Part shown: in pieces, positions 9,001 to 41,926 of the stretch
Position numbering within the stretch: position 1 is the first letter of the stretch
Layout: each line of letters starts with the position of its first letter
Assembly (NCBI GenBank): GCA_028716165.1
Contig: JAQUQI010000001.1
Span: 191,832-255,831 of the forward strand
DNA length: 64,000 bases
Direction: 5' to 3'
DNA from: Candidatus Omnitrophota bacterium
GTDB lineage: Bacteria > Omnitrophota > Gorgyraeia > JABMRG01
Program-made: the position numbers and the translations under genes
Notes under the pieces: generated by a model
Told to the model about the DNA's origin: nothing
Database searches by the model: none
Seen by the model: the letters and a program-made list of their open reading frames with translations, nothing else

Positions 9001-10444
9001 ATACACGCTCTTTCTTTTTCCAATTGCCACTTGCACATAACCGAGTAATTTTGGACTCATGCCTTACATCCATCCAATTTTTTAATAAATTTTCCAGCGT
9101 CTCAGTGTGCATTCTTGAAAATGTACCTGCAGTATCATTTATTAAATCATCAGAAATGTCTTCAGGAAAATTGGTATTCACCGTTGAGAGCCGTATAAAG
9201 GTAAAGGGGTAACAAAACAAGCGCCATAGCATTCTTGATAGATCTATACCTCTCCCAATCAAAAACGGCAATCCTATGGCTATAAGTGGCATAGCAATTA
9301 TTTCTGTTAACCAAGCTACCCACTTAACAGCAGGCGTAGCATTATCAGTTCCTAACTGCCACCAATTAAAGCTATAGGCAGCCCATAATAACAGGCCTCC
9401 AATAAACCATCCCGCACCAGCTAGACCACCACTAAAATCATCAACGTCACGGTAAAAATCACCTACCCACTCACTTTTTACAGGTATAATTTCTTTAAGG
9501 GTTTTCCAGTATGACAAGGAAGGAATACGAGAATCTCTTTTGTTAATTGATAGGTAATTGCCGAGTAAAACGCCGGAAGCGCTTCCTATAATTGGAAAAC
9601 TTAAAGACGCAATACGCAGCGAAATTACACCTACTGGACTAATGAGAATTGCGGAGCAAACAATAGCACCTATAAGTAGACTGATAACACCTACGACTTT
9701 TCCTTCTTTTGCAATTGAAAGGCCTCCAACAATCATGCCTCCAAATATTCCCAAAAAACCTGCTACAAAAGAATAGGGATTACGTAAGATTTGCAATATT
9801 GAAACCGTTCCACTACTTATAATACCGAAAGGTATAAGTGAAATAGCATAACTAGCCACAACCCCAAAAATAGCCCACATAAAAACATCCTTGGCTATTG
9901 CACCGTGCCTATTACCAAACAAACGCATAGTATGCTTGGGGCTAGAAAAGAAAAAGCTATAAGGCAACGGTGCTCTTTTTGTATGTATTGGTTTAAATTT
10001 CTTAACGGGCTTTGCAGTGATTAAGTTTTCTGGGTGGCTTTCTTTCTGGACTAGTAAATGTTGCTGCTCCGGGGAAGCGCCTGATGAAGATGATCTGATA
10101 TTGTCTTGTTTGTCTGGAAAAATAGGTGAGCCATCTTTAAGGCGTTCTGTGGTATCAGCTGTATTTAGTTTATTATGAAGATAATCAACATCTAAAGATT
10201 TAATGAGCGCAATTGTTTCAGGGTCTATACTACCTAAATCAACGCCCTTATATCCTAATGCCCCCTCTATTTCTAGGCTAATAGGATTTGACTTTACAGA
10301 TTGTGCTCTTAAAGCAGAGTCATTATTGAATGAAAAGTCCCAATTACATGCCCACGAGATATCGTGGAGTAAAAAGGCAAGGATTATAACTATAGAAATG
10401 ATTTTAAAGATAAAACGGCTGGTCTTATTACGCTGCCACACCAT
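1..10444 (-). CDS. Giant hypothetical protein, at least 3,481 aa. It starts at ATG 10444 with an N-terminal signal anchor (MVWQRNKTSRFIFKIISIVIILAFLLHDISWA) and continues past the window start, so it is 3'-truncated here. It is membrane-anchored, with ~92-aa tandem repeats, a duplicated SGDC[ST]A-motif domain and a long C-terminal coiled coil.
   Basis: There are no long plus-strand ORFs across 10.4 kb. I translated the minus strand manually, and the frame agrees at the start codon (10444), at ~8000, at ~5500, at 3780-4080 and at the window edge (pos 1-61 read ...HIDIHNHGYHVFYKTKEEFVK). The translation is protein-like throughout: heptad-like E/K/Q/L-rich text at 130-3400, and hydrophobic helices at ~9200-10000, ~3720-3790 and ~2770-2840. 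The ORF tool probably skipped it because no stop codon lies in the window. Confidence 0.7.
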   Translation of the reverse strand, partial: MVWQRNKTSRFIFKIISIVIILAFLLHDISWACNWDFSFNNDSALRAQSVKSNPISLEIEGALGYKGVDLGSIDPETIALIKSLDVDYLHNKLNTADTTERLKDGSPIFPDKQDNIRSSSSGASPEQQHLLVQKESHPENLITAKPVKKFKPIHTKRAPLPYSFFFSSPKHTMRLFGNRHGAIAKDVFMWAIFGVVASYAISLIPFGIISSGTVSILQILRNPYSFVAGFLGIFGGMIVGGLSIAKEGKVVGVISLLIGAIVCSAILISPVGVISLRIASLSFPIIGSASGVLLGNYLSINKRDSRIPSLSYWKTLKEIIPVKSEWVGDFYRDVDDFSGGLAGAGWFIGGLLLWAAYSFNWWQLGTDNATPAVKWVAWLTEIIAMPLIAIGLPFLIGRGIDLSRMLWRLFCYPFTFIRLSTVNTNFPEDISDDLINDTAGTFSRMHTETLENLLKNWMDVRHESKITRLCASGNWKKKERVLQIYSDLVSYVQTKEATVHKFTKNSGDKQRLLNIINDLKIKLEQNQISGVSLLKDVILKVTQDSQSLEEFVSWMNLLIELHKDLWQSSQCILSIYADLKEFKEAHKAALGKFAHSSDDQRQVSVVIDNLKTVLDAHGLNAAGLLKIALPQLIENARNLNEFVYWIGVLASIDIKIWKSGIQSVIKVYSDLLEFERAKEEAVRKFTHNNQQKTQLVNATNNLKDKIASYGLNSADLLKDIIPELTRNADGLEDYLYWIQTLDNFDKAVWQSGKQKILLVYMNLRDYKQAVKAAANKISRTAQEKVSFLGLIDDFKNKVTRKNTDAIVAFKDIIIAITQDSTDKNTFVFWLNKLTELEDTIWKSGSQRVLAAYSDLKAYAQAKEEAARKYTANQKDSWEIIAAIDNVESKISWQKIESVNLLRTAISELVHVVPDKKEFLFWMEIISRLDKEIIEPFARGMKLILEFCLSEEGKRKDRRNLATALNQYRAKFGEVLAVSYNLLVELTYPTRSVEERVEKARKYIVEQKLVKLGVPSHLADIRDAVSAEEWISAVKENTISSDLTHTGIQKAMSKMGRDGLYSYFETENPIFYRTFRQGTQALNSEFNKPGEKFRILYDVAITEKHERDFSNIMPMSDEVRAVQDIIINLRNKWPNLYRNFAKAKKDLLGKQEVEEFITKENVAGVASRLLKMMLGWEDIPSQDRLPCILQLIEILAFSSSDEIKESRNEIFTINDEFQRLELISMYWQELFELSQKMSRLTSNPRIKQQVIPFLKRKIIDTNNAIGVGGEGILQFFLSGKTISDFLKGNVSGDCSASPQSGISHANMHFSDSFNTVVDPAFFLFKVVENGKWIGNIYSLVVKDNENRTGLFLDVLQMSHHPLSDNNGDEWNARRRNLAKNLIQQLKNWLAYEGFDFLVISSTPSTRSESIKTAIFQAIKDDGIIQESLNLKKAGSSEYAQEFGFSKEYVQFFSSEATGDFRPVNGYKFEIEPKTKKIRHITKESLRYQKEIAESQRLFAGFQAETIRLQALVEDISTELRQLQQSYNKAVNFKRTAVIGALKPAIDKKKTELDKMIQEIHEIEVKMKSRIAFIEQLEKELGTILPKEREMPSLQFASPSISRSVPLKLIFTGFFLLSFTNMARAATIVKSSVTTFAESMLLLVGIATGIFLLYKIFCFLYKLLKEDAYSYPYEKKDKTDYIRSDYFNNTAPSPRLLRPLYEEYHLPFEIQDLLGQVLLKINPTLRQRLPSHIDIKLPWDVGISRNQSLKVMKLLFTVLSDYKSIHEFFVGQDFYRQFKIDTNHLGLSNDFDQPRHVFSFIIKENDIKRDRNEQIEKFIEKFLNSLIEECEPILHRYETEREILYKIKKERDHLNKPTFWERVNQRTAVQNYFLLLKSLAFMRFKARLVNLRTSLNENTYLEALGLIEECLRVGLGSEIISLEKTHELSADLNKLLQRELAEVNDYLDQLIILHEARDLDLEDAQDIRFEMVLFGRTPDDIAIGEASGDCTAISGRTGAFFYNTIPQFLFDPGFLVFKIFQEGVWVGNVYTIVAEREGIPVLIIDAMQLPASDRSWPISVEKIADRVIEEIARYADYVGFQEVLMSSFVSNFSILQRYFDTKHPTAPTTIRKIGGFDHLKNLGLWNDKSERNEYIETFSPQWNYFWKKRVDPNISWQTLLLRRIWQRRGPPIDLSQPVPTETIKKDLPEIDLPSPASKEVFGTQDNIKSSSSGISSAKPTFFKNFNPTKILRNILLISAFIFTMGLASMSNAQTQLAEVIIPLTQQEQVDIQRIEAVRYSEIASLICQLADRDSRTFWWEGVRIGRQTVEALRGAEKDYSLSRADLSRLRMALNSLRKGKGSLEQVSNYLYWLPDMGRLAQALEEQGLRRQPLGQLREARERLQDRQRIAELQDRAQALESDVESLQEEKAEILERFSELHDKVTGAQDEFVEKIAEIKDLLQSQADQAEVMARDLKDKLGEQRQKAETLAQSLEDSQRQAKAYEDRISQQQDKITEQEEKVASLEKELSAQQKVYEQKLKQETEAPHTLSRFWQDSSALQKTLAILSLLLLIGISVVSILSLLVRNKALKSKITESNALEASLKQKDDELKEAKRLLVQAKQDEEAVKRSAAENKDKAVELERLLREQQKPDTEAHQQPQEAPAVAKPLAPVVPVAQAEPAKLAEPTKKPVAAAVIPPVTEVKKTDAGIADDLEHNARRITDLEKKTDDVEKQLGVFLAGMTKHRKITAPPAENEDSNEWLKSALEQLKELEAARDALAQMGKAVDALYKQVEGLKGDISKQQDEIPAASEKPALRAPPEQKESTQCTQEGFLKSLGANMQAKYIQRLARSEKIDLEKRANFIKDEIGIDIGEGKYIGLLTVSESTLKRKKELLEELSLPLKPYLFKMGEGRLREKALKRKERPLPVQVPPVLLVEPSEDDVSAQVTQEQAKALEEQTRSLESERNTLVSEIEALKARKDQLEADNSALSADIARLRQDKNNIVQEITVFEQRLANIQAEIDKKEKATQDVISSDAENLRRQIQALEKTKSALEAEIQARNKAKEDIETGISELSSKKTSSEEQLDNTHQQITQVNITLAGLSSEIEKLKTDKKALEAHLAQIEDQRLEAEKVFNRVKMALDNINLELSQLKNEKARYKADISDLAKRKDSFENKLRSDQAELAKLTAALHTLRAQITKITDEKDKQEADEETKINAKVSLVDKLNSRMQDLLNQITQKRQEILLAQEQKSMLGEEIKSLAEQKDYLLQKITQLEKNFQNLTDHLQTLKSEGQQKQANFAELSRAQEALRVSLSNSKHEIAQAAEAHRILTAEIARFQLQKQDLLLEVEKLTSQKEFLTKDLALLRQEKERLETDLLSLREEKKRLKKKPEEIRIEEEVKPEAEKLEELYEKAHILLDEVASLGDEQIHDALIQQIKKTSIKGIDIESVPIKSRPGHTNIIIKIPATEQKYEHLPKIILNAHIDIHNHGYHVFYKTKEEFVK

Positions 10445-19127: not shown

Positions 19128-19217
19128 AAATATTAAATACATGGTTTCCTTGGCTTTAGATTTTCAATCCTTACCGCAGAACGATTATGTTTAAAGGCCC
19201 TTGCCGGAAAGAGCCTT

Positions 19218-20963
19218 TTACTTTCTATAAAGAGGCCTTGGCAGATAATGAGTGTGTAAAAGCTTGTGTGATTTCTCGCTTAACGGTTTTATCAGAAATT
19301 CTTTATACAGTTTGATTATATATGGATTTTCATGCGCGAATCTTAACTTCCTGTCACTGTCATCCTGATACAAGCCCTTGGCCCTTATCACCCTTAACTG
19401 GTCAGTGGCTCCGTAGGGTTGGCCGCCGCCGCCTACACACCCGCCCGGACATGCCATAACTTCTATAAAATCATAAGGTATTTCTTTGCCTTTAGCGGAT
19501 GCTTCATGGACCCTGTCTAATACGCATTCAACATTACCCATGCCATGGGCCACTGCTATCCTGACCCTGGCGCCTTTTATGTCTATCTCGGCCTCCTTTA
19601 CGCCCAGCAATCCTCTTACAGGCGTAAATTCCACCTCTTTTAAGTTTTCGCCTGTCGCGTAAAAATACGCTGTTCTTATGGCAGCCTCCATAACGCCTCC
19701 TGTGGCGCCGAATATCACGCCCGCCCCGGTATAATCGCCGAGCATATGGTCAGGTTCTTCATCGGGGAGGTTTAGGAAATCAATGCCTGCCTGCTTTATC
19801 ATGCGGGCTAATTCTCTTGTCGTGATAGATATATCAACATCCTGCTGGCCTGATGAAAACATTTCCTTGCTTCTGGCAATCTCGTATTTTTTTGACGTGC
19901 ACGGCATTACAGAGACCATGAATATCCTGGATGCCTCAATCTTGTTCTTGTCCGCGTAATAGGTCTTTGCCAAAGCGCCCACCATTTCATGGGGGGATTT
20001 AGCCGACGAAAAATGTTCTATCATATCGGGATAAAACTTTTCCATAAAATCAACCCACGAAGGACAGCATGTGGTAATAAGCGGAAGCGGGCCTTTCTTA
20101 TGGACAAACCTGTTTATAAATTCAGACGCCTCCTCTATTACCGTAAGATCAGCGCCGAAACATGTGTCAAAGACAGCCTTAAACCCCATCCTTCTTAAAG
20201 CAGTGTAGATCTTGCCAGTCAGGTTCTCCCCCGGCCTGCACCCAAAGGCCTCTCCAAGAGCAACGCGGACAGCAGGGGCTATCTGCACCACGGGGTACTT
20301 ATCATTATCATAAAGCGCTTTCCAGACCGCGGGCGTCTGATCGTATTCAGCGATGGCCCCGGTAGGGCAATGGGCGGAGCACTGCCCGCATCTTATACAG
20401 GGGCTTTCTGCCAGTTCTATGTCCCCTGCCGCCGATATCCTGGTGCTGTGGCCTCTTTCCAGAAAAGAAAGGGCCCACACATCCTGCTGTTTCTGGCATA
20501 CTTGGACGCATCTTCCGCACAATATGCATTTTTCAGGCACAAGGGTTATTGTCTTTGTTGAATCGTCATTGGGTATCTGCCGCAAAAACTGGGGAAAAGC
20601 CGATTCTCTTATGCCGAAGTCCGAAGCGAGCTTCTGCAATTCGCAATTATTGTTTCTTGCGCATTTCAGGCAGTCGTTGGGATGGTTGGAGAGTATAAGC
20701 TCTAAGACATTTCTCCTTATGTCCTGCAATTCATCATCATGGGTTATTATGTCCATACCCTCTTCCAGCGGGGTACAGCACGAACGCAGCATCTTATTAC
20801 TGCCTTTTATTTTTACTATACATATGCCGCAGGCCCCTGTGGCATCAAGATCAGGGTGTTTGCAAAGAGACGGTATATTTATCTGTATTTCTTTGGCCGC
20901 GTCAAGTATGCTGGTTCCTTTTTTGACGCTGACCTCAATGTTGTTGATTTTAGCTTTTATCAT
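19218..20963 (-). CDS. hydA: [FeFe]-hydrogenase catalytic subunit HydA, bifurcating group A3 type, 581 aa.
   Basis: N-terminal 2Fe-2S ferredoxin-like domain plus 4Fe-4S domains. H-cluster motifs: L1 TTCCPSW, L2 MPCTSKKYE, L3 EVMACPGGCVGGGGQP. Confidence 0.9.
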   Translation of the reverse strand: MIKAKINNIEVSVKKGTSILDAAKEIQINIPSLCKHPDLDATGACGICIVKIKGSNKMLRSCCTPLEEGMDIITHDDELQDIRRNVLELILSNHPNDCLKCARNNNCELQKLASDFGIRESAFPQFLRQIPNDDSTKTITLVPEKCILCGRCVQVCQKQQDVWALSFLERGHSTRISAAGDIELAESPCIRCGQCSAHCPTGAIAEYDQTPAVWKALYDNDKYPVVQIAPAVRVALGEAFGCRPGENLTGKIYTALRRMGFKAVFDTCFGADLTVIEEASEFINRFVHKKGPLPLITTCCPSWVDFMEKFYPDMIEHFSSAKSPHEMVGALAKTYYADKNKIEASRIFMVSVMPCTSKKYEIARSKEMFSSGQQDVDISITTRELARMIKQAGIDFLNLPDEEPDHMLGDYTGAGVIFGATGGVMEAAIRTAYFYATGENLKEVEFTPVRGLLGVKEAEIDIKGARVRIAVAHGMGNVECVLDRVHEASAKGKEIPYDFIEVMACPGGCVGGGGQPYGATDQLRVIRAKGLYQDDSDRKLRFAHENPYIIKLYKEFLIKPLSEKSHKLLHTHYLPRPLYRK

Positions 20964-20965
20964 AA

Positions 20966-22768
20966 TTACTCCTTAATAACGGCGTCAAATTTGCATACCT
21001 CAAAACACTTTCCGCATTTTACGCACTTGGCCGCGTCTATAGTATAGCCCTGTTTGGAATCGCCGGTTATGGCCTTGACGGGACAATTTTTCGCGCAGAG
21101 CCCGCAGCGCCTGCATTTTTCGGTAATTATGCGATACGTCATAAGTTCGGCGCACTTGCCTGAACGGCATTTTTTAAGCTTTACATGCTCTTCATATTCG
21201 TCTCTGAAAAACCTTAAAGTTGACAATACGGGATTGGGGGCGGTTTGGCCCAGGCCGCAGAGTGAAGCGCGTTTTACAGTATTGCATATTCTTTCAAGCT
21301 TTACGATATCATCCATTGAGGCCCTGCCGGAGGCAATCTTTTTTAGATACTCAAGCATCTGGTATCCGCCTATACGGCAAGGCGCGCACTTCCCGCATGA
21401 TTCATCCACGCAAAAACCCAGATAGAATTTGGCAATATCAACCATGCAATCGGTTTCATCCATGACTATCATTCCGCCCGAGCCCATAATAGAGCCGAGC
21501 TTTTGCAGATTCTCATAATCTACAGGCGTATCAATGTATTCCACGGGTATCACGCCGCCGGAGGGCCCGCCGGTTTGAACAGCCTTGATCTTTTTATCAT
21601 CTATTAACCCGCCGCCTATATCATAAACGATCTCTCTTATCGTTATACCCATGGGGACTTCTATTAGCCCTGAATTCTTGACCTTTCCTGTAAGCGCGAA
21701 TACCTTGGTGCCCTTAGAATTCTGACTGCCTATGGAAGAAAACCACTTGGCCCCTTTCGTGAATATAACAGGCACATTGGCCAATGTCTCCACATTGTTT
21801 ATAACAGTAGGCCTTGACCACAGACCCCTGACAGACGGATAAGGCGGCCTCGGAGTCGGGACGCCGCGCTTGCCTTCAATTGAGGCGATAAGCGCTGTTT
21901 CTTCGCCGCAGACAAAGGCTCCGGCCCCAAGCCGTATCTCAAGTTCAAAGTTGAAATCACTGCCTAATATTCCGTTGCCGACAAGGCCGTATCCTCTGGC
22001 CTGTTCTATCGCATTTTGTATCCGCTTAATGGCCAACGGATATTCGGCCCTTATGTAGAAAAAACCCTTGCTCGCGCCTGTCGCGTAGCCGGCTATAAGC
22101 ATGCCCTCTATTACGGAATGAGGGTCGCCTTCCAATATGCCCCTGTCCATATAAGCCCCGGGGTCTCCTTCGTCGCCATTACATATTACGTATTTTTCAT
22201 CGGCCTCTATGTCCTTGGCAAAATTCCATTTCATCCACGTAGGAAAGCCTCCGCCGCCTCTGCCGCGCAGGCCGCTGTCCTTAAGCTGTTTTAACACATT
22301 GTCCTGGCTTTTGCCCGCTAATACGGCCTTGAGCCCCTGATAACCGTCACGGGCGATATAATCATCTATGCTTTCGGGATCTATGACGCCGCAATTTCTT
22401 AATACGACCTTGAGTTGTTTTCCGGATTTATCTTCATATCTGGCCGAGTCAAAGATTTTTTTACCGCATATATGCTGTTCAATAATACTGCGGGCAACGT
22501 CTTCATTAACATTCCTATAAATCACCGGCCCTGACCAGGCAGTATTAACTTCAACTACAGGCTCCGCGAAACACAAGCCGTTACATCCTGTCTTCTTAAG
22601 ACAAACATCAAGGCCTTTTTCATCTATAAGCTTTTTTATCAGGTCAAAAACGGCCGAAGCGCCCGCGGCGATACCGCATGTGCTCATGCCTACCCTTATG
22701 CACGTCTTGGGTTCTTTCCTGAATTTATTCCTTATCTGGTCAATATCGTTTTTTATGATTTTTGACAT
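20966..22768 (-). CDS. hydB: Hydrogenase flavoprotein subunit HydB (NuoF-like, NADH-binding), 600 aa. Carries an N-terminal thioredoxin-like 2Fe-2S module and C-terminal 2x[4Fe-4S] ferredoxin.
   Basis: GLRGRGGGGFPTWMKW FMN/NADH motifs, a CGKCAPCR cluster, and C-terminal CRRCGLCAKNCP...CVKCGKCFEVC. Confidence 0.85.
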   Translation of the reverse strand: MSKIIKNDIDQIRNKFRKEPKTCIRVGMSTCGIAAGASAVFDLIKKLIDEKGLDVCLKKTGCNGLCFAEPVVEVNTAWSGPVIYRNVNEDVARSIIEQHICGKKIFDSARYEDKSGKQLKVVLRNCGVIDPESIDDYIARDGYQGLKAVLAGKSQDNVLKQLKDSGLRGRGGGGFPTWMKWNFAKDIEADEKYVICNGDEGDPGAYMDRGILEGDPHSVIEGMLIAGYATGASKGFFYIRAEYPLAIKRIQNAIEQARGYGLVGNGILGSDFNFELEIRLGAGAFVCGEETALIASIEGKRGVPTPRPPYPSVRGLWSRPTVINNVETLANVPVIFTKGAKWFSSIGSQNSKGTKVFALTGKVKNSGLIEVPMGITIREIVYDIGGGLIDDKKIKAVQTGGPSGGVIPVEYIDTPVDYENLQKLGSIMGSGGMIVMDETDCMVDIAKFYLGFCVDESCGKCAPCRIGGYQMLEYLKKIASGRASMDDIVKLERICNTVKRASLCGLGQTAPNPVLSTLRFFRDEYEEHVKLKKCRSGKCAELMTYRIITEKCRRCGLCAKNCPVKAITGDSKQGYTIDAAKCVKCGKCFEVCKFDAVIKE

Positions 22769-22780
22769 TTAGTTTGGCCT

Positions 22781-23659
22781 TTATTTTGTTTCCGCGGCGG
22801 ATTCTTTTACGTAGGCGGAGATTATATTCAACACATCTTCTTTCTTTACCTTGCCGTGTATTTTATTATTTATCATTACAACAGGGGCGAGCCCGCAGCA
22901 GCCAAGGCATCTGACTATCTGCAAATGGAATAAACCGTCCTGCGTAGTCTGGCCTTCTTCAATGTCAAGTATGCTCTTAAACTCCTGGAGTATATCGTTG
23001 GCGCCTTTCAGATAGCAGGCGGTACCCATGCACAAGGAAATTGTGTATTTACCCGGCGGGTCAAGCTTAAAATAATTGTAAAAAGTTATAACCTCGTATA
23101 TGCGCGCCAGCGGGACATCAAGCATGCGCGACAATTCAAACGATATTCCTCTTGGGACATACCCATAGTGATTTTGTATTTCATGCAATATCATGACAAG
23201 AGAGCCTTTTTTCCCTTTCCATCTTTCGGCCAGGGTATTTATTTCATCTATTATCTCTCTATGCCTTTTACCCGTCTTGCTAATATGGCCTTCTATCAGC
23301 TTGAGCAGGGCCTCGGGTTTTATGGGCTTTTCAACAATAGCCCTTACCGGAAGATTTTTGGGATCAGGCTTGAGTTCAACCGGGAAATTAATCTCCTTGT
23401 GCGCGCCCGTGATAAGTATTATCGGTATGTTCTTACTGGCGGCATCCTCCGATATGATCTTTGCCGTGTCAAGGCCTTCCGTCTTATAAGACATCATCAT
23501 ATCCAGCAGTATAAGATCAGGCGATTCACTCTTCACCTTCTGCACGCCCTCCGTGCCCTCAAAGGCGTTTATAGTATTATAACCGCTGTTGTTAAGGAGC
23601 ACTGAAATAGCTTCAACAAAATCCTTATCATCATCAATAATCAAAATAGTATTGCGCAT
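22781..23659 (-). CDS. hydC: Fusion protein: N-terminal response-regulator receiver (REC) domain joined to a NuoE-like thioredoxin-like [2Fe-2S] ferredoxin (HydC), 292 aa.
   Basis: REC: ILIIDDD...DLILLDMMM...IILITG...EKPIKPE. NuoE: CMGTACYLKGA...CLGCCGLAPV. This is the first gene of hydC-B-A set 1. Confidence 0.8.
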   Translation of the reverse strand: MRNTILIIDDDKDFVEAISVLLNNSGYNTINAFEGTEGVQKVKSESPDLILLDMMMSYKTEGLDTAKIISEDAASKNIPIILITGAHKEINFPVELKPDPKNLPVRAIVEKPIKPEALLKLIEGHISKTGKRHREIIDEINTLAERWKGKKGSLVMILHEIQNHYGYVPRGISFELSRMLDVPLARIYEVITFYNYFKLDPPGKYTISLCMGTACYLKGANDILQEFKSILDIEEGQTTQDGLFHLQIVRCLGCCGLAPVVMINNKIHGKVKKEDVLNIISAYVKESAAETK

Positions 23660-25894: not shown

Positions 25895-25944
25895 ATCACG
25901 CCTCTTTTTTATATCGGTTGCCGTATTAGATAAAACAGGCCTTA

Positions 25945-27870
25945 TCAACTGCCGGAGCCGGGCCCGCGCTTTGTTTTTTTGACATTTATCCATTTGCCGC
26001 GGGCGGTATAACCTGTATGCAGCAATTTATGGCTAAGATGGCCGCATGGGCCTTCTTTAAAATATTGCTCGTATATTTGTTTGACAACAGGGTTTTCGTG
26101 TGATTTTCTTAATACAAGGCTTTCGTCCTCGGCGTAGATTGCCTTTATACGGGCGCCCCTGATATCAGGGCCTGTGGGTATAGGCTGGCCGCCGCCGCCA
26201 ATGCAACCGCCCGGGCATGCCATTACCTCAATAAAATGATAGTCGTCCAGCTGTCCTTCGCAGAGCATGTCCATGACTTTTTTGGCATTAGCCGTGCCGT
26301 GCGCTACCATAACCTTCAGGGTAACGCCTTCTAAAAACTTCCATTGCTCCAGGGTATCTTTGATAATAATCTGCGCTTTTCTTATTCCTTCCACTCCCCT
26401 TACAGGCATTACGCGTAAATTTTCAAAAGGCGCCTCGCGGCCTGTAACCAGTTCGTAAGCCGTCCTTATGGCAGCCTCCATTACTCCTCCCGTAGCGCCA
26501 AAAACAAGCCCGGCGCCGCTGCCGGTTCCAAGAGGATCGTCAAAATCAGACAGGGGCAAATTCGGCAGGTCTATGCCGCACTCTTTTATCATGCCCGCTA
26601 ATTCACGCGTCGTAAGGGCATAATCCACGTCTTTATACCCTGAACTGTTCATTTCAGGGCGTTGGCATTCAAATTTTTTCGCTGAACACGGCATCAGCGA
26701 AACAGAAACTATATCAGCCGGGTCAATATTATTCCTTTCGGCATACCAGGTCTTGGCTATAGCGCCGAACATCTGCTGAGGGCTTTTGGCTGTTGACAGG
26801 TGGCCTAATCTACCGGGATAAAAATGTTCAATAAATTTTACCCATCCCGGCGAGCAGGATGTTATCTGCGGAAGCCTGACACTCTTGTCTTTGCCGGCAA
26901 TGGCCTTTTTAAGCCTTAAAAGCAGTTCGGTCCCTTCTTCCATTATCGTAAGATCCGCGGTAAAATTGGTATCAAAAACCTTGTCAAAACCTATGCGTTT
27001 TATGGCAGTGTTCAGCTTTTTAGTAACACTTGTACCCGGTTTTAGGCCAAATTCCTCGCCGATAGCAGCCCTGGGGCTCGGCGCCGTCTGGATGATAACA
27101 TGCTTTTTGGCATCTTCAATAGCCTTCCATATTCCTTCAGCAGGGTCTTTGGCCTTTAATGCTCCGGTGGGGCATCTATTGATACACTGGCCGCAGTTAA
27201 TGCAGACTACATCGTTTAAAGGCATATCCATATAGGTGGATATTTTTGTGCCGGCACCCCTGTGCACAGCCTCCAAAGCTCCTACCTCCTGCAAATCAAT
27301 ACATGTCCTGACACAGCGCCGGCAGAGTATGCATTTATTCATATCGCGCTCAACAGCATAGCTTGACTGGTCTTTATCATATCTCGGGGCCTTGATGTGC
27401 CCGAATTTATAAGAAGTAACTCCGTATTCTTTTGCCAATACCTGCAATTCGCAGTTATTGTTACGCGCGCACGAATAACACTCGCCATAATGGTTTCTTA
27501 ACAATAATTGTATTATATTGCGCCGGGCACGGCGAATACGCGGCGAATATGTCCTTATATTTATCGGGCCGAATATGGGATACGAACAGGATGCCTGTAA
27601 AGTCCGCTCATTGTCCACTTCAACAACGCATATCCTGCATACGCCCGCCAGGCAGAGATCATCATGCTGGCAGAGGGTAGGTATCTTTATATTTACCATA
27701 CGCGCGGCCTCAAGTATGGTAGTGCCCATGGCAACCTTTACGGCTATGCCGTCAATATTAACCGTAATGTCGCCCCCAATAGCGTCTTTTTTTATCTCGC
27801 CCGTTTCCTGCCTTCTCTGGCTTACAGGCGCCCTTGATGTCTCACGCGCGAAAGCTTTATTATCAGCCAT
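25945..27870 (-). CDS. hydA: Second [FeFe]-hydrogenase large subunit (HydA2), 641 aa. It has a non-canonical L1 motif TSCSPGW, a 2Fe-2S N-domain and a ~35-aa N-terminal extension.
   Basis: L1 ITSCSPGW, confirmed on the DNA (26842-26862 reverse-complement = ACA TCC TGC TCG CCG GGA TGG). L2 SLMPCSAKKFE, L3 IEVMACPGGCIGGGGQP. N-terminus LCQHDDLCLAGVCRIC. Confidence 0.85.
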   Translation of the reverse strand: MADNKAFARETSRAPVSQRRQETGEIKKDAIGGDITVNIDGIAVKVAMGTTILEAARMVNIKIPTLCQHDDLCLAGVCRICVVEVDNERTLQASCSYPIFGPINIRTYSPRIRRARRNIIQLLLRNHYGECYSCARNNNCELQVLAKEYGVTSYKFGHIKAPRYDKDQSSYAVERDMNKCILCRRCVRTCIDLQEVGALEAVHRGAGTKISTYMDMPLNDVVCINCGQCINRCPTGALKAKDPAEGIWKAIEDAKKHVIIQTAPSPRAAIGEEFGLKPGTSVTKKLNTAIKRIGFDKVFDTNFTADLTIMEEGTELLLRLKKAIAGKDKSVRLPQITSCSPGWVKFIEHFYPGRLGHLSTAKSPQQMFGAIAKTWYAERNNIDPADIVSVSLMPCSAKKFECQRPEMNSSGYKDVDYALTTRELAGMIKECGIDLPNLPLSDFDDPLGTGSGAGLVFGATGGVMEAAIRTAYELVTGREAPFENLRVMPVRGVEGIRKAQIIIKDTLEQWKFLEGVTLKVMVAHGTANAKKVMDMLCEGQLDDYHFIEVMACPGGCIGGGGQPIPTGPDIRGARIKAIYAEDESLVLRKSHENPVVKQIYEQYFKEGPCGHLSHKLLHTGYTARGKWINVKKTKRGPGSGS

Positions 27871-29068
27871 GAAATTCTTTCTCCTTTTCTACCGCCTTTG
27901 ACAGCTTATACTCCCGCTTAAAATGGCCGATCGCGGATATGAAAGGCTTGGGGCACGATTGGCCCAGCCCGCATTTTGAGGCTGTCTGCATAGTCTCGGA
28001 CAAAGACAATAACTCATCCAGATATTTCTTGCTGCAAAGCCCATTTCTTATCATGTTTAAGCCTTCAAGCAGAACGGGAATTCCTTCTCTGCATGGAGTG
28101 CATTGGCCGCATGATTCATCCTTGAAAAATCTCAAGAAATTCTCCACGACTTCAAGCATGCGGCGTTCTTTTGAAAAAACTATAAGAGAGCCTCCTGTTG
28201 AGAAATCCTCAAAACAGACAGCCCTGCTAAAATGCCTTCTGGCGACAATCTCCCCGGAGGCTCCGGCAGAGACCGCCTTAGCGTTTTCTCCGCCAGCAAT
28301 TTTTAATATAGACTTTATATCGGAACCAAACTCTACTTCATAGACGCCCGGCCTTTTGCAATCGCCTGATACGCTTAGTAGTTTTGTCCCTGTTGATTTC
28401 GCTGTGCCGAAACTCTTAAACCAATCGGCGCCTTTTTCCACAATATGAGCAAAATTACTGAATGTCTCAACATTATTCAATACCGTCGGATAACCGTTAT
28501 AGCCCGTATTTACCGGAAAAGGCGGCCTGTTTCTCGGCTCGCCGCGGCAGCCCTCAAGCGATTCTATCAATGCTGTTTCTTCGCCGCACACATAAGCGCC
28601 AGAGCCAAGTTTTATTTCAATATCAAAATCAAAACCCTGCCTGCCCATAATGGACATGCCCAGGGCGTTTTCTTTTCGCATCCCTTCAAGAACGCCTTCA
28701 AGAAAACCCGTAAACGATTTGTATTCGCCGCGAAGGTATAAAAAACCCGTATCAGCGCCGCTTGCAAAAGCGGCAATAGCCATACCCTCAAAGATAAGGC
28801 GCGGATATTCCAAAAGCATTACCCTGTCTTTAAAAGTTCCGGGTTCGCCTTCATCCGCGTTACAGACAACATATTTTTTTTCAGAACGCGCGGCAGATAC
28901 CAGATTAAGCTTTATGCCGGCGGGAAAACCCGCCCCTCCTCTGCCGCGAAGGCCCGAATCCCTTATCCGGCTCAATACACCGGCCCTGCCAAGCTCTATG
29001 GCTTTTTTTAACCCCGCGTACGGAATAATTTCGCTGAAGATGACCGCGCCTTTTCTTTTTTCAGGCAT
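27863..29068 (-). CDS. hydB: NuoF-like flavoprotein subunit (HydB2), short form at 401 aa, lacking the extra N- and C-terminal Fe-S modules.
   Basis: GLRGRGGAGFPAGIKL, YVCGEETALIESLEG, ESCGQCTPCREG. Confidence 0.8.
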   Translation of the reverse strand: MPEKRKGAVIFSEIIPYAGLKKAIELGRAGVLSRIRDSGLRGRGGAGFPAGIKLNLVSAARSEKKYVVCNADEGEPGTFKDRVMLLEYPRLIFEGMAIAAFASGADTGFLYLRGEYKSFTGFLEGVLEGMRKENALGMSIMGRQGFDFDIEIKLGSGAYVCGEETALIESLEGCRGEPRNRPPFPVNTGYNGYPTVLNNVETFSNFAHIVEKGADWFKSFGTAKSTGTKLLSVSGDCKRPGVYEVEFGSDIKSILKIAGGENAKAVSAGASGEIVARRHFSRAVCFEDFSTGGSLIVFSKERRMLEVVENFLRFFKDESCGQCTPCREGIPVLLEGLNMIRNGLCSKKYLDELLSLSETMQTASKCGLGQSCPKPFISAIGHFKREYKLSKAVEKEKEFHG

Positions 29069-29567
29069 AATCTCTCCTTGTTAATGGCTTCTTTGAAAGC
29101 CTGCGGACTATATCTTTGACATCTTTTGGCGTAATATTGCCGACCAGTTCACCGTCTATTAAAGCGGCGGGCGCCTGGTCGCACATGCCTATGCATCCGG
29201 TCTCTTCAAGAACTATATTTTTATATTTACCCGGGCGGCCTTTTTTTATCTTTAAGGCTTTTTCAAACTCCTTTTGTATCTTCCCACTGCCCGCCATTAT
29301 ATTAGGCATACAATTGCTTATCCGTATCGTATGCCTGGCTTTCGGGCCTGACGTAAGAAAGGCGTAGAAGGTTACCACAGAATACACCTCAACAGGGTGT
29401 ATCCCGAACCTGTCGGCCGTCTCCTGCATATCCTTATCCGATATATATCCTTTTTTCTGTTGTATGCCTTGCAATACAGGCAATAATTTTGAGCGCGTTT
29501 CATCACACACGATAATTTCTTTGCCGTCTTTTACCGTCTTTTTTGTTACAGCGCATTGTTTAACCAT
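29061..29567 (-). CDS. hydC: NuoE-like thioredoxin-like ferredoxin subunit (HydC2), 168 aa. The second Cys of the first CxxxxC pair appears replaced (CMPNIM).
   Basis: VYSVVTFYAFL...IRISNCMPNIMAG...ETGCIGMCDQAPA. Overlaps hydB2 by 8 bp. Confidence 0.65.
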   Translation of the reverse strand: MVKQCAVTKKTVKDGKEIIVCDETRSKLLPVLQGIQQKKGYISDKDMQETADRFGIHPVEVYSVVTFYAFLTSGPKARHTIRISNCMPNIMAGSGKIQKEFEKALKIKKGRPGKYKNIVLEETGCIGMCDQAPAALIDGELVGNITPKDVKDIVRRLSKKPLTRRDYA

Positions 29568-38827: not shown

Positions 38828-40015
38828 TTATCCTTTTTTAAAATAAGATGATGACATGCCCCGCACCTTTTTAATAACAGCGGGAAGCCTTTCTATCACA
38901 TAATCAATATCTTCGTCTGTAGTCTCTCTGCCCAGGCTGAAACGTATAGCTCCATGGGCATCTTCAGCCTCCATGCCTATTGCCAAAAGCACATGCGAAG
39001 GCTCTAGCGAGCCGGAAGCGCAGGCTGAACCTGTGGAAACGGCTATGCCTTCCATGTCAAGATAGAGCATTACCGCTTCTCCTTCAGCCGCCTTAAACGA
39101 AACGTTCAATGTGCCCGGAAGGCAATCCTCGGGATGGCCGTTAAAACTTATATCATCTATATTATCTTTTATAAAATCTTTTAGCCTTTGCTTTAACCGC
39201 GTAAGGCGGCGCGCCTCTTGCGCCATCTCATTCCTCCTGCAGGCAATTGCGGCCGCCATGCCTATTATGCCGATAGTGTTTTCCGTGCCCGCCCTGCGGC
39301 CTTTCTCCTGATGCCCGCCGCGTATAAAAGGGCAGAAGGGCGCTTTTGATCTGGCATATAAAGCGCCTATACCTTTGGGCCCATAAATTTTATGCGCGGA
39401 AAAAGATAAAAAATCAACCCCGAGCTCTTTCACGTCAACGGGCAGTTTACCTACGGCCTGAACAGCGTCTGTATGCAGTAATGCGCCGTTGCGATGCGTT
39501 ATATCAGATATGCTTTTTATATCCTGGATAGTCCCTATTTCATTGTTTGCCATCATTATTGAAACAAGCACGGTATTTTCATTTATCATATCCTTCAAAC
39601 GGCCAATATCAATCTTACCGGAGCGCTGGACTCCGGCCCTGGCCACCGTCATCCCTTTTTGCCCCATGCACTTAGATGTCTCAATAACGCAAGGATGTTC
39701 TATATCGGATACGATAATCTGGCGCTTTCCGCCGTATTTGGAGGAGCATAGGGCGGAACAGCATGAAAGCATATTTAATACAGTATTATTTGCTTCCGAA
39801 CCGCTGCCGACAAATATAATTTCATCCGGATCGGCATTGATAAACGAGGCCATATCGGCCCTTGCCGTCTCTATGGCGGATTTTGCCTGCCTGCCGAAAA
39901 AATGAAGGCTTGAGGCATTGCCATAGATATCAAACAGCCCGCTGATAGCTTTTTTAACTTCAGGATGAAGCGGGGTCGTCGCGTTATTATCAAGATACAC
40001 GTTTCTGTCTTTCAT
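38828..40015 (-). CDS. nifS: Cysteine desulfurase NifS/IscS.
   Basis: PLP lysine SFSAHKIYGPKGIGALY, catalytic Cys loop STGSACASG. 395 aa. Confidence 0.85.
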   Translation of the reverse strand: MKDRNVYLDNNATTPLHPEVKKAISGLFDIYGNASSLHFFGRQAKSAIETARADMASFINADPDEIIFVGSGSEANNTVLNMLSCCSALCSSKYGGKRQIIVSDIEHPCVIETSKCMGQKGMTVARAGVQRSGKIDIGRLKDMINENTVLVSIMMANNEIGTIQDIKSISDITHRNGALLHTDAVQAVGKLPVDVKELGVDFLSFSAHKIYGPKGIGALYARSKAPFCPFIRGGHQEKGRRAGTENTIGIIGMAAAIACRRNEMAQEARRLTRLKQRLKDFIKDNIDDISFNGHPEDCLPGTLNVSFKAAEGEAVMLYLDMEGIAVSTGSACASGSLEPSHVLLAIGMEAEDAHGAIRFSLGRETTDEDIDYVIERLPAVIKKVRGMSSSYFKKG

Positions 40016-40452
40016 TTTTTAAACGCCTTTTCCTTTCTGCGCAAAAGCAAAAGCCCTTTTAGCGTGTAGAGTTTAAGGTAATCCCCGATAACAGACCTAA
40101 GCCCGAGCCATAGCCCCCTGACCTTGCAATCATCAAAATGGGAGCAGTCTTTTCGCCTGGCCCTGGGCCGTTCACAGACAAGTTGTAAAACGCTTTTTTC
40201 TACTGCCAATACGATATCCATTGCCGTGATGTCCGCGGGCCGCCTGGAAAGCACATAACCTCCTTTTGATCCGCGGGCGCTTTTTACTATCCCGGCTCGT
40301 CTTAACGCGCGCAGTAATTGTTCAACGTAATCGTACTCTATACTCTCTCTCTTGGAAATAAGGCCCACAGGGGTAGGCTTACCCTGCTCATACCTGTCCG
40401 CCAGTATAATAGCGCATGATAAAGCGTAATCCAAACGAGAACTTATCTTCAC
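40012..40452 (-). CDS. iscR: Rrf2-family transcriptional regulator (IscR-like, with a Cys cluster).
   Basis: N-terminal wHTH MKISSRLDYALSCAIILA. CERPRARRKDCSHFDDC three-Cys motif. Confidence 0.65.
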   Translation of the reverse strand: MKISSRLDYALSCAIILADRYEQGKPTPVGLISKRESIEYDYVEQLLRALRRAGIVKSARGSKGGYVLSRRPADITAMDIVLAVEKSVLQLVCERPRARRKDCSHFDDCKVRGLWLGLRSVIGDYLKLYTLKGLLLLRRKEKAFKK

Positions 40453-40489
40453 CCTATTTTACTCCCCATTATTTCTCTAATGCGAAATA

Positions 40490-40518
40490 AATATACAATA
40501 TCCGCTATTTTTTGTCAA
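40490..40518 (-). promoter_or_regulatory. Sigma70-like promoter for the iscR-nifS-nifU operon: -35 TTGACA (40518..40513) and -10 TATATT (40495..40490), 17-nt spacer.
   Basis: Minus strand reads TTGACAaaaaatagcggatattgTATATT, ~35 nt upstream of the iscR ATG. Confidence 0.45.
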
Positions 40519-40530
40519 GTATTATTTTAA

Positions 40531-40890
40531 TGAGCACATAAGTTACGCGACCGTAAGGAAGCGTAACTTATAAGTGCGAATGCATCCTGAAAATACGACG
40601 AACAGGAGTATTTGAAGGATCCAGGTGTCAATACAGTATACGGGAGCATTGTCAGGATCTAATTGTGAACATAAGTTACGCGACCGCCAGCAAAGCGTAA
40701 CTTATAAATGAGCACATAAGTTACGCGACCGTAAGGGAGCGTAATTTAATAGTGCGAATGCATCCTGAAAATACGACGAACAGGAGTATTTGAAGGATCC
40801 AGGTGTCAATACAGTATACGGTAGCATTATCAGGATCTAAGTGCGAATGCATCCTGAAAATACGACGAACAGGAGTATTTGAAGGATCCA
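40531..40890. repeat. Intergenic tandem repeat array: a 178-bp unit in two copies plus an extra partial copy. It contains three copies of a 34-bp hairpin-forming palindrome and three copies of a ~50-88-bp B-unit.
   Basis: Palindrome copies (ATAAGTTACGC-N12-GCGTAACTTAT): 40538-40571 is perfect; 40671-40705 has a variant spacer; 40716-40750 is degenerate. B-unit copies (gtgcgaatgcatcctgaaaatacgacgaacaggagtatttgaaggatcca...) lie at 40574-40662, 40752-40840 and 40841-40890. Confidence 0.85.
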
Positions 40891-40957
40891 AGATTACCTT
40901 AATTGTCACGAGGATAATTGATAGGTGTAGTACGATAACCTGATAAAAATAAGCGGG

Positions 40958-41926
40958 TCACAGATATTTTCCAGAGCCAAGATAGCCCGCATAATCCTTC
41001 ACAGCCTTGTCCATATCCATAAAACTGTGATCGCATCCGGCAGATCTTAATTTAGCAATAACAGCCTTGGTAAAATACTGGTATTGTTGTTTAATATTTT
41101 GCGGCATGTCAATATATTCTATAACAGGCTCTTTGCCTAAAGCTTTAAATAGAGCGCGCGCTAACTCGTTCCAGGTATAAGCGCGGCCTGTTCCCACATT
41201 ATATATCCCTCTCTTACCGGGATTTGATAAAAAAAACCACATTATATCAACAACGTCTTTTACGTATACAAAATCTCTCATCTGTCCGCCATCGGCATAT
41301 TCCGGTTTGTATGACTTAAAAAGCTTAAGCCTGCCGGTTTCTTTTATCTGATAATATCCTTTATTAATCATGCTTCTCATGTCCTGCTTGTGATACTCAT
41401 TGGGCCCATAGACATTAAAAAACTTAAAACCTACTACCTTATCGGCAATCTTATTGTCTAATACCCACAGATCAAATTTATGTTTTGACCGGCCGTATTC
41501 ATTCAATGGTTGAAGTTTCAAAGTGGATGAATCATCATCACTATAACCCAACTCGCCGCTGCCGTAAGTCGCCGCGCTGCTCGCGTAATAAAAAGGCTTA
41601 TTATTCTTTATTGACCACAGGGCAAGCTCTTTGGTATATAAAAAATTATTATGGTCAAGGTATTTGCTGTCCGTCTGCGTTGTGTCGGCGCAGGCGCCTA
41701 AGTGCACTATCACATCTATGGCATCATTCATGCGGCCTGTCCCAATGAGCCTGCGAAAATCATCGCGTTCAATGTATCCGGCAATATTTTTTCCTTTTAT
41801 GTTCGCGCTGTCTTTAGCCTTACAGCCAATATCTACAACGATAATATCCTTTATGCCCTGCGTATTAAGCTTCCACAAAAAAACACTTCCTATAAAACCC
41901 GCCCCGCCTGTCACTGCTATCTTCAT
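40958..41926 (-). CDS. NAD-dependent sugar-nucleotide epimerase (ADP-L-glycero-D-manno-heptose 6-epimerase HldD-like).
   Basis: MKIAVTGGAGFIGS and a YGRSK catalytic motif. 322 aa. Confidence 0.55.
   Translation of the reverse strand: MKIAVTGGAGFIGSVFLWKLNTQGIKDIIVVDIGCKAKDSANIKGKNIAGYIERDDFRRLIGTGRMNDAIDVIVHLGACADTTQTDSKYLDHNNFLYTKELALWSIKNNKPFYYASSAATYGSGELGYSDDDSSTLKLQPLNEYGRSKHKFDLWVLDNKIADKVVGFKFFNVYGPNEYHKQDMRSMINKGYYQIKETGRLKLFKSYKPEYADGGQMRDFVYVKDVVDIMWFFLSNPGKRGIYNVGTGRAYTWNELARALFKALGKEPVIEYIDMPQNIKQQYQYFTKAVIAKLRSAGCDHSFMDMDKAVKDYAGYLGSGKYL

Follow-up and report, generated by a model that had tools for sequence, protein, structure and literature searches.

The window analyzed here, a 64-kb stretch of DNA, contains a 505-nt non-coding spacer (40453-40957) between two minus-strand genes. 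On one side of the spacer lies hldD, coding for an ADP-glyceromanno-heptose 6-epimerase, which is the final gene of an lplA-lipA-hldD run, and on the other lies a gene for an Rrf2-family regulator, downstream of which are nifS and nifU (the Rrf2-nifS-nifU operon). The closest homologues of both hldD and the Rrf2 gene are annotated as Candidatus Omnitrophota. An earlier note on this DNA had named the former gene hldD-like, which its profile score bears out, and the latter iscR; here, membership of the Rrf2 family holds, but the match to the IscR equivalog model is 85 bits as against a cutoff of 207, and the gene is IscR-like by context only. The spacer is occupied by an array of hairpins, and the short ORFs within the repeat block match no protein family, in agreement with the previous reading of the array as non-coding. 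The features of the locus are:

40012-40452, minus strand: Rrf2-family regulator gene (PF02082; TIGR00738 95.6 bits, above cutoff)
40490-40518, minus strand: sigma-70-type promoter of Rrf2-nifS-nifU (TTGACA at 40518-40513, 17 nt, TATATT at 40495-40490; 11 of 12 matches)
40527-40584, plus strand: A1, a full 58-nt A-type hairpin (core palindrome 40538-40571; covariance model R1 77 bits, E 2e-18)
40584-40620, plus strand: Ba1, a B-type hairpin (ATCCT-GA-AAATAC-[GACGAACAGGA]-GTATTT-GA-AGGAT; fold -11.9 kcal/mol)
40617-40657, plus strand: Bb1, a degenerate B-type hairpin (from inverted repeats I2 and I13 and the fold)
40671-40705, plus strand: A2, an A-type core palindrome (13-nt loop GACCGCCAGCAAA; inverted repeat I11; partial R1 match of 23.5 bits)
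40705-40762, plus strand: A3, a full A-type hairpin (core 40716-40749; R1 72.4 bits)
40762-40798, plus strand: Ba2, a B-type hairpin identical to Ba1
40795-40835, plus strand: Bb2, a degenerate inverted B hairpin differing from Bb1 at 2 bases
40851-40887, plus strand: Ba3, a B-type hairpin identical to Ba1 and Ba2
40893-40928, no strand assigned: AU-rich hairpin, positioned between the array and the stop codon of hldD (fold -9.3 kcal/mol)
40958-41926, minus strand: hldD (TIGR02197 363 bits, cutoff 274.6)

Local folding resolves the array (40527-40887) into eight successive hairpins in the order A1-Ba1-Bb1-A2-A3-Ba2-Bb2-Ba3, with centre-to-centre steps of 35-54 nt (mean 44.9), and this spacing explains the repeat spacings of 44, 45, 89, 133 and 178 nt observed in the region. 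A1 is organized as a P1 helix (TTAAT/...), a GA/GA mismatch, P2 (GCAC/GTGC), P3 (TAAGTTACGC/GCGTAACTTA), a GA/AA mismatch and a CC-GUAA-GG tip; its core, ATAAGTTACGC-N12-GCGTAACTTAT, forms a perfect 11-bp stem at 40538-40571. The earlier note had counted three such 34-bp palindromes with perfect stems, a description that fits the copy in A1, whereas the second has a 13-nt spacer and the third is imperfect. The second, A2, is also devoid of the conserved outer flanks of the A type, while A3 has a decayed 3' arm (GCGTAATTTAA); its 2 mismatches relative to the palindrome include a G-T. Similarly, of the three B-units proposed to alternate with the palindromes, a 49-nt core is indeed present three times with zero mismatches (at 40574, 40752 and 40841), but the actual order is A1, B-long, A2, A3, B-long, B-short, and B-long is not a single module: it comprises two hairpins, Ba and a degenerate Bb that reads better inverted (ATCCTGACAATGC...GTATTGACACCTGGAT on the minus strand), such that Ba1 and Bb1 constitute an inverted pair. 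The stem of Ba1 covaries with those of its relatives.

At a larger scale, a 141-nt stretch is repeated at a spacing of 178 nt with 94% identity, which upholds the higher-order period originally proposed. The A palindrome pattern and the B-core pattern were each reproduced by 0 of 100 shuffles, and the fold of the array is far better than that of shuffled sequence on both strands (z = -9.5 for the plus and -6.5 for the minus strand, the latter being the folding check that had been suggested). Tandem Repeats Finder gives no report for the region, as the units are too unlike one another, and the three differing unit types along with the lack of unique spacers concur with the earlier dismissal of a CRISPR array. 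Relative to hldD and the Rrf2 gene, every A and Ba copy in the window has the R-sense (the F sense being defined as that of the window plus strand); hence, the array resembles a multiplied B-A(R) half-element.

The promoter of the Rrf2-nifS-nifU operon is separate from the repeat: A1, which abuts the conserved region upstream of the promoter, ends about 9 bp upstream of the -35 hexamer, whose position in the earlier note is retained here. The promoter block AAAATAATACTTGACA...TAGCGGATATTGTATATT is kept in the contigs L031, L033 and L036, which have a short array or none. Over the minus-strand interval 40483-40530, the promoter, its spacer and the upstream A-tract are kept in relatives whose Rrf2 identity is as low as about 71%. 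The -10 hexamer of L033 and L036 is followed by the ATG after about 10 nt, which would make the mRNA nearly leaderless, while the Rrf2 mRNA of the window has about 28 nt of extra leader, a Shine-Dalgarno (SD) sequence and a GTG start. At the other end of the spacer, the AU-rich hairpin at 40893-40928 occupies the position where relatives have a terminator-like hairpin after hldD, and shows one A-U to U-A compensatory change relative to L004.

At the same locus in other samples, array length differs even between near-identical strains. Two short-read contigs from the same population (L001 and L002) end inside it. A third contig, L003, with 0 differences over 2.6 kb of flanks, is without exactly one 178-nt period, a difference that could be a genuine deletion or could stem from a collapsed assembly. 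L004 (SACC01000457.1), whose hldD is 96.3% identical at the nucleotide level, is without exactly one 45-nt unit (an A2/A3 hybrid) and has one more B unit, a variant of sequence ATCCTGATAATGC-GACCAACGGGA-GCATTAGAAGGAT whose stem differs from that of Ba by two compensatory changes; the minus-strand 5' arm of Bb1 equals this variant unit but for one base. Thus, against the eight hairpins of the window, strain-level change includes both the loss of a 45-nt unit with the gain of a variant one and the loss of 178 nt. The MAG containing L004 is titled 'Clostridia bacterium', and its hldD is 98% identical to that of the window; given this near-identity, and as the next-best homologues and the Rrf2 relatives are annotated as Candidatus Omnitrophota, the label is probably wrong.

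In a more distant relative (L010, L013, L020, L031 and L032; proteins 74-90% identical), the A arms and flanks are identical to those of the window, and the B hairpin has GG/CC in place of AA/TT. Between these species of about 80% amino-acid identity, the A stems and flanks, the outer helices and the GA/GA mismatches are fully kept. L010, L020, L031 and L032 show A and Ba' modules only, and their contigs end inside the array. Farther out, in L033-L036 (Rrf2 71-76% identical), the promoter block is kept and the hldD-Rrf2 spacer has neither an A nor a B hairpin. The array is hence a lineage-specific addition placed against a pre-existing promoter. In L005-L009, with hldD 67-68% identical, nifS directly follows hldD, so that the Rrf2 gene and its promoter are themselves variably present at this position across the lineage.

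These observations bear directly on the earlier proposal that the A palindromes are operators of the adjacent IscR-like Rrf2 regulator, arrayed upstream of its own promoter. The location of A1 close to the -35 hexamer favors this, as does the fact that the palindrome starts with ATA and ends with TAT, just as IscR type-1 sites begin with ATA and end with TAT. Yet L033-L036 keep the -35, spacer and -10 without any palindrome, and the palindrome occurs upstream of the GAPDH, gvpA, acpS and ptsN genes on contigs with no Rrf2 gene nearby. Its arms covary, as expected of a hairpin rather than a fixed double-stranded half-site, and its 34-bp span with a 12-13-nt spacer is a misfit to Rrf2 sites, which span 25-29 bp. 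We accordingly abandon the operator proposal, whose probability we rate as very low; the promoter spacer, being conserved in relatives, is a likelier autoregulatory operator than the array.

To search for relatives of the hairpin away from this locus, metagenomes were scanned with a pattern consisting of only the bare arms, TAAGTTACGC-N10-14-GCGTAACTTA. This recovered 20 loci, of which 5 look like chance palindromes and about 15 share flanks and a loop lying outside the pattern, namely TTAATGAGCRC on the 5' side, GACYG..AAGGA in the loop and GYGCGAATTAA on the 3' side, none of which was required by the search. A metagenome pattern that included the loop start found no match. All members of the family are intergenic and lie between co-directional genes, with downstream genes that are mutually unrelated (genes for GAPDH, gvpA, acpS, ptsN, a glutamate-synthase-like protein, a lipoprotein and a zinc-ribbon protein). 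Several contigs (L012, L018, L023 and L029) have several separate intergenic sites, with 2-5 members per 4-14 kb on contigs other than that of the window. Two contigs of the family, L022 and L023, are tied to Candidatus Omnitrophota MAGs by exact protein matches. The family is therefore dispersed over metagenome contigs, at least some of which come from Candidatus Omnitrophota.

In the recurrent layout, followed along the direction of transcription, the stop codon of the first gene comes first, then an F-sense A copy, a hairpin of GC-rich or B type, an R-sense A copy, and lastly the SD and ATG of the second gene. Such an arrangement, fitted into very small intergenic spacers, is that of REP pairs/BIMEs, BOX elements or a MITE ending in hairpins. 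The stop codon is often the TAA or TGA inside TTAATGAG, while the R-sense copy ends in ...GYGCTCATTAA, flush with the ribosome-binding site of the next gene. Such inverted F/R pairs are found between co-directional genes in L011, L012 (two sites), L014, L018, L023 and L029; in the L011 composite the partner terminal hairpins have different stems. Single B-A(R) modules also precede genes. A second hairpin type, CCCCC(C)TGCTTTCTTGYGAAAGCAAGAAGGGGGG, is nearly identical at L011 4295-4327 and L018 11276-11314 on unrelated contigs; it forms the centre of composite elements and is echoed in the hldD-nifS spacer of relatives (L005 4975-5020). At the ptsN site, L037 and L039 have 35 nt from a tRNA gene to the ATG, as compared to about 190 nt in L023, where an A(R) copy is flush with the same SD; this is an empty/filled-site pair. 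The tRNA genes upstream of ptsN are flanked by long AT-rich hairpins in which short words are reiterated (GCTGTCAGCT..., GGTTCTAGGT...), another and distinct type of Omnitrophota repeat (L037 1665-1755 and 2140-2245, also in L039).

The earlier note had held that many copies would point to a generic REP/MITE element. This is what is seen at the level of the family in other contigs, but within the 64-kb window the array is the sole site, even with the filters of the R1 covariance search off, which counts against a REP/MITE reading. So does the finding of the Ba core on one contig only (L004) among 185,579 representative genomes. The sole occurrence in the window and the recent 178-nt duplication (94% identity) would also be expected if the array were a structural accident in which DNA upstream of the promoter was duplicated in tandem at this locus alone, without relatives elsewhere. 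About 15 unrelated contigs contain members of the family, whose flanks are conserved and whose stems covary, and this runs against such an origin, which we find scarcely credible.

Elsewhere in the window, a stretch of about 6.6 kb (3813-10108) is AT-rich (GC 0.32-0.36 as compared to about 0.42 nearby), has no ORF of at least 100 aa on either strand and is bracketed by a 29-nt direct repeat (3813-3841 and 10080-10108, 97% identical); an element that has integrated or degraded is a possible explanation. Additionally, the regions 19200-22800 and 25900-29100 share 30-120-nt stretches of 70-87% identity at a constant offset of about 6.7 kb (repeat families D3, D5, D6, D9 and D12), which suggests two tandem paralogous gene sets.

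The A type (58 nt) and the B type (about 37 nt) are built alike, with an outer helix followed by a conserved GA/GA mismatch, then a variable helix, another GA/GA and a short tip. In type A this takes the form of a 5-bp P1, GA/GA, a 4-bp P2, a bulge, a 10-bp P3, GA/GA, a 2-bp P4 and a loop of 3-6 nt. The alignment of A members shows changes on both sides of the helix in 7 of 21 pairs and that of B members in 4 of 12; the covarying A pairs include some in P1, P2 and P4, beyond any possible search bias. Paired cells make up 96-97% of the total, falling to 23-45% when partner columns are slid, and none of 500 shuffles reached the observed covariation score. While P1, P2, P3 and P4 covary, the GA/GA positions are invariant in all 16 aligned members. 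When 233 kb of fetched DNA was searched with R1, a covariance model built from the A-member alignment, about 30 members were recovered, many with wholly different P1-P3 but with the same architecture and GA/GA positions.

Read in the F sense, the conserved mismatches are all GA/GA, and in the opposite sense UC/UC; for 27 of 30 members the F sense gives the more stable fold. With respect to transcription, 19 members are in the R-sense and 8 in the F-sense. The stems are almost wholly Watson-Crick (602 such pairs as against 11 G-U pairs, with no strand bias); in a strand-asymmetry test comparing G-U with A-C, there were 11 versus 8 wobble pairs among about 600, which are few counts. Such near-pure Watson-Crick stems fit DNA palindromes or young repeats better than an old functional RNA, and may still be compatible with recognition of the hairpin as a single-stranded nucleic acid.

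A rival proposal is that the family is a host-selected structured RNA or ssDNA module, recognized by a protein via the two tandem G.A motifs and serving as intergenic punctuation for mRNA processing, protection of 5' or 3' ends or insulation of ribosome-binding sites, with the array being a reinforced version. The invariance of GA/GA amid covarying helices argues for this, as do the stereotyped placement directly against the stop codon at one end and the SD at the other, the identity of the A stems and flanks between species at about 80% amino-acid identity, and the greater stability of the plus-sense fold in most members. Nonetheless, as both orientations occur, the mRNA of most copies would contain UC/UC rather than GA/GA, G-U pairs are nearly absent, and the presence/absence differences between close relatives together with the instability in copy number suggest dispensability. 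Flush placement would also result if elements inserted into a compact genome whose intergenic spacers are very short. On balance, we regard a host-selected module as unlikely. A more specific version, to which we assign a somewhat smaller chance still, is that the 58-nt double-G.A hairpin and its B cousin are an unrecognized protein-binding module that punctuates Omnitrophota intergenic regions, with the array acting as a super-barrier or decoy; if true, the module would set mRNA ends and shield ribosome-binding sites, and the array would be functional rather than junk.

A different RNA-level possibility is that the plus strand encodes a CsrB/RsmZ-like sponge RNA, with GGA motifs in the loops for a CsrA-type protein. 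Such motifs (AAGGA, CAGGA, CGGGA) are present in 6 of the 8 plus-strand hairpin loops, and the plus-strand fold is very stable. On the other hand, no sigma-70-like promoter and no terminator were found on the plus strand, GGA has disappeared from A2 and Bb2 as well as from B loops of orthologous hairpins (GACAGCCGAGA in L010 and GACGAATAGAA in L022), and the G and A residues belong to the tandem GA and the 2-bp helix rather than to open loops. Moreover, single modules occur in both orientations by unrelated genes, and tblastn with E. coli and B. subtilis CsrA (approximate queries) on the fetched DNA, a limited sample, found no csrA. We hence consider a sponge RNA highly improbable; the absence of a plus-strand promoter or terminator and the presence of modules in both orientations relative to the flanking genes likewise speak against the sRNA array that had been offered as an option.

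Several other candidates, considered from the sequence, were dismissed. Hexamer matches and spacings for a sigma-70 or sigma-54 promoter within the A hairpin are poor, and a separate promoter is present. The GTTACGC/GCGTAAC boxes are in the order opposite to the R''/R' of an integron attC. UGAG...CGAA is like the stem II junction of a hammerhead ribozyme, although there is no CUGA core and the helix of P1 is uninterrupted; for a kink-turn, the 3-nt bulge does not adjoin the G.A pairs. A UCCUU loop that could act as an anti-SD for the downstream SD is lost in members with other stems, and a type III toxin-antitoxin repeat RNA is not accompanied by a toxin gene.

Taking these together, the same modules being found between unrelated genes elsewhere identifies them as a family of the REP/BOX/MITE kind rather than as sites for binding of the operon's regulator, and we propose that the array is probably a cluster, amplified at this locus, of modular palindromic intergenic repeats akin to REPs/BIMEs, BOX elements or MITEs. 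Among the options listed in the earlier note, that of a REP- or MITE-like element is the best supported, as the hairpin with its unrequired flanks occurs beside unrelated genes on about 15 other metagenome contigs. Membership of the family, its dispersal, covariation, presence/absence polymorphism and copy-number change are all directly observed. Points that weigh against the REP/MITE reading, in addition to the distribution noted above, include the lack of a GTAG/CGTC REP tag and the fact that no transposase, parent insertion sequence (IS) or target-site duplication was identified for the family in the contigs examined; any signal of a target-site duplication is masked, as the TTAA/P1 ends are palindromic and the empty and filled sites are too diverged. 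That the outer helices, GA/GA mismatches and A arms are fully kept between species of about 80% amino-acid identity might just as well be due to selection by the host on the RNA.

For the amplified repeat cluster, we envisage a scenario in which a B-A half-element came to lie just upstream of the pre-existing conserved Rrf2 promoter, and unequal recombination or slippage among modules of about 45 nt would then have raised the number of hairpins to eight. The family may be mobilized non-autonomously by a hairpin-recognizing enzyme. RNA reading through from hldD might fold into the eight stable hairpins and thereby act as a barrier or 3'-end stabilizer, which could leave the Fe-S operon to its own promoter. 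The insulator or terminator between the hldD operon and the Rrf2 promoter, also among the options in the earlier note, may be a plausible local consequence, though a terminator scan found none within the array and no array hairpin is followed by a U-tract.

The family appears to be new, though of a known kind, and undescribed as far as found: no description of such repeats in Omnitrophota was found in the literature, and the phylum was absent from the REP literature found. Rfam searches gave no credible match for the array at E up to 10 or for two composites at E up to 1, BLAST against plasmids and phages found no match to the family, and scans of viral contigs with the A and B patterns found none either. 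A structured, covarying repeat family is now recorded in an uncultivated phylum, where it is without an Rfam model. As the array is not a set of IscR/Rrf2 operators, it should not be used for inferring Fe-S regulation, removing a false lead. The family also breaks short-read assemblies, with the contigs L001, L002, L031 and L032 all ending inside the array, and the array could consequently be a strain-typing marker. The invariant double GA/GA design in turn provides a handle for finding an enzyme or protein that recognizes the hairpin.

Among known systems, REPs, as described from Enterobacteria and Pseudomonas, are short imperfect palindromes of 20-40 nt with an unpaired GTAG or CGTC tag at one end, and lie between ORFs that are unidirectional or convergent (Di Nocera et al. 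2013, PMC3733652). Our family resembles the REP/BIME/REPIN group in consisting of short imperfect palindromes in transcribed spacers between unidirectional genes (PMC3733652; Bertels & Rainey 2011, PMC3116915). As with REPs and BIMEs, the copies often form pairs in opposite orientations around a short linker and at times tandem clusters, the hairpin is kept by compensatory changes, and its presence differs between relatives. In contrast, neither type A nor type B has GTAG or CGTC next to the stem on either strand, the flanks being AATGAGCRC and GYGCGAATT, and the A hairpin is 58 nt long, with two conserved tandem GA/GA mismatches. REPs are, furthermore, associated with RAYT (a Y1 transposase) and dispersed at high copy number in a single genome, while our family is known here from contigs rather than from complete genomes of the lineage.

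The BOX elements of Streptococcus pneumoniae offer a second parallel, being composite modules with variable tandem number and strain-specific length changes, which are intergenic, co-transcribed, predicted to fold as stem-loops if transcribed and capable of altering gene ends (Croucher et al. 2011, PMC3049150). They differ in that the unit repeated here is a B-A hairpin pair, whereas BOX has boxB repeated between fixed boxA and boxC ends; our family comes from a different phylum. The neisserial Correia element is a hairpin-forming MITE, MITEs being marked by terminal inverted repeats, a target-site duplication and a related autonomous IS. Comparably, our composites have inverted terminal A copies (F ... 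R), lie beside gene starts and stops and show empty/filled polymorphism. Unlike in Correia-type MITEs, each terminus of our family is a complete hairpin, the stems of partners can differ, as in L011, and at the window locus all A copies point in the same direction. Finally, the tandem hairpins, many with GGA near the tip, recall CsrB/RsmZ, a resemblance that looks superficial, since the family has no promoter or terminator of its own, does not conserve GGA and consists of modules that are singly dispersed in both orientations.
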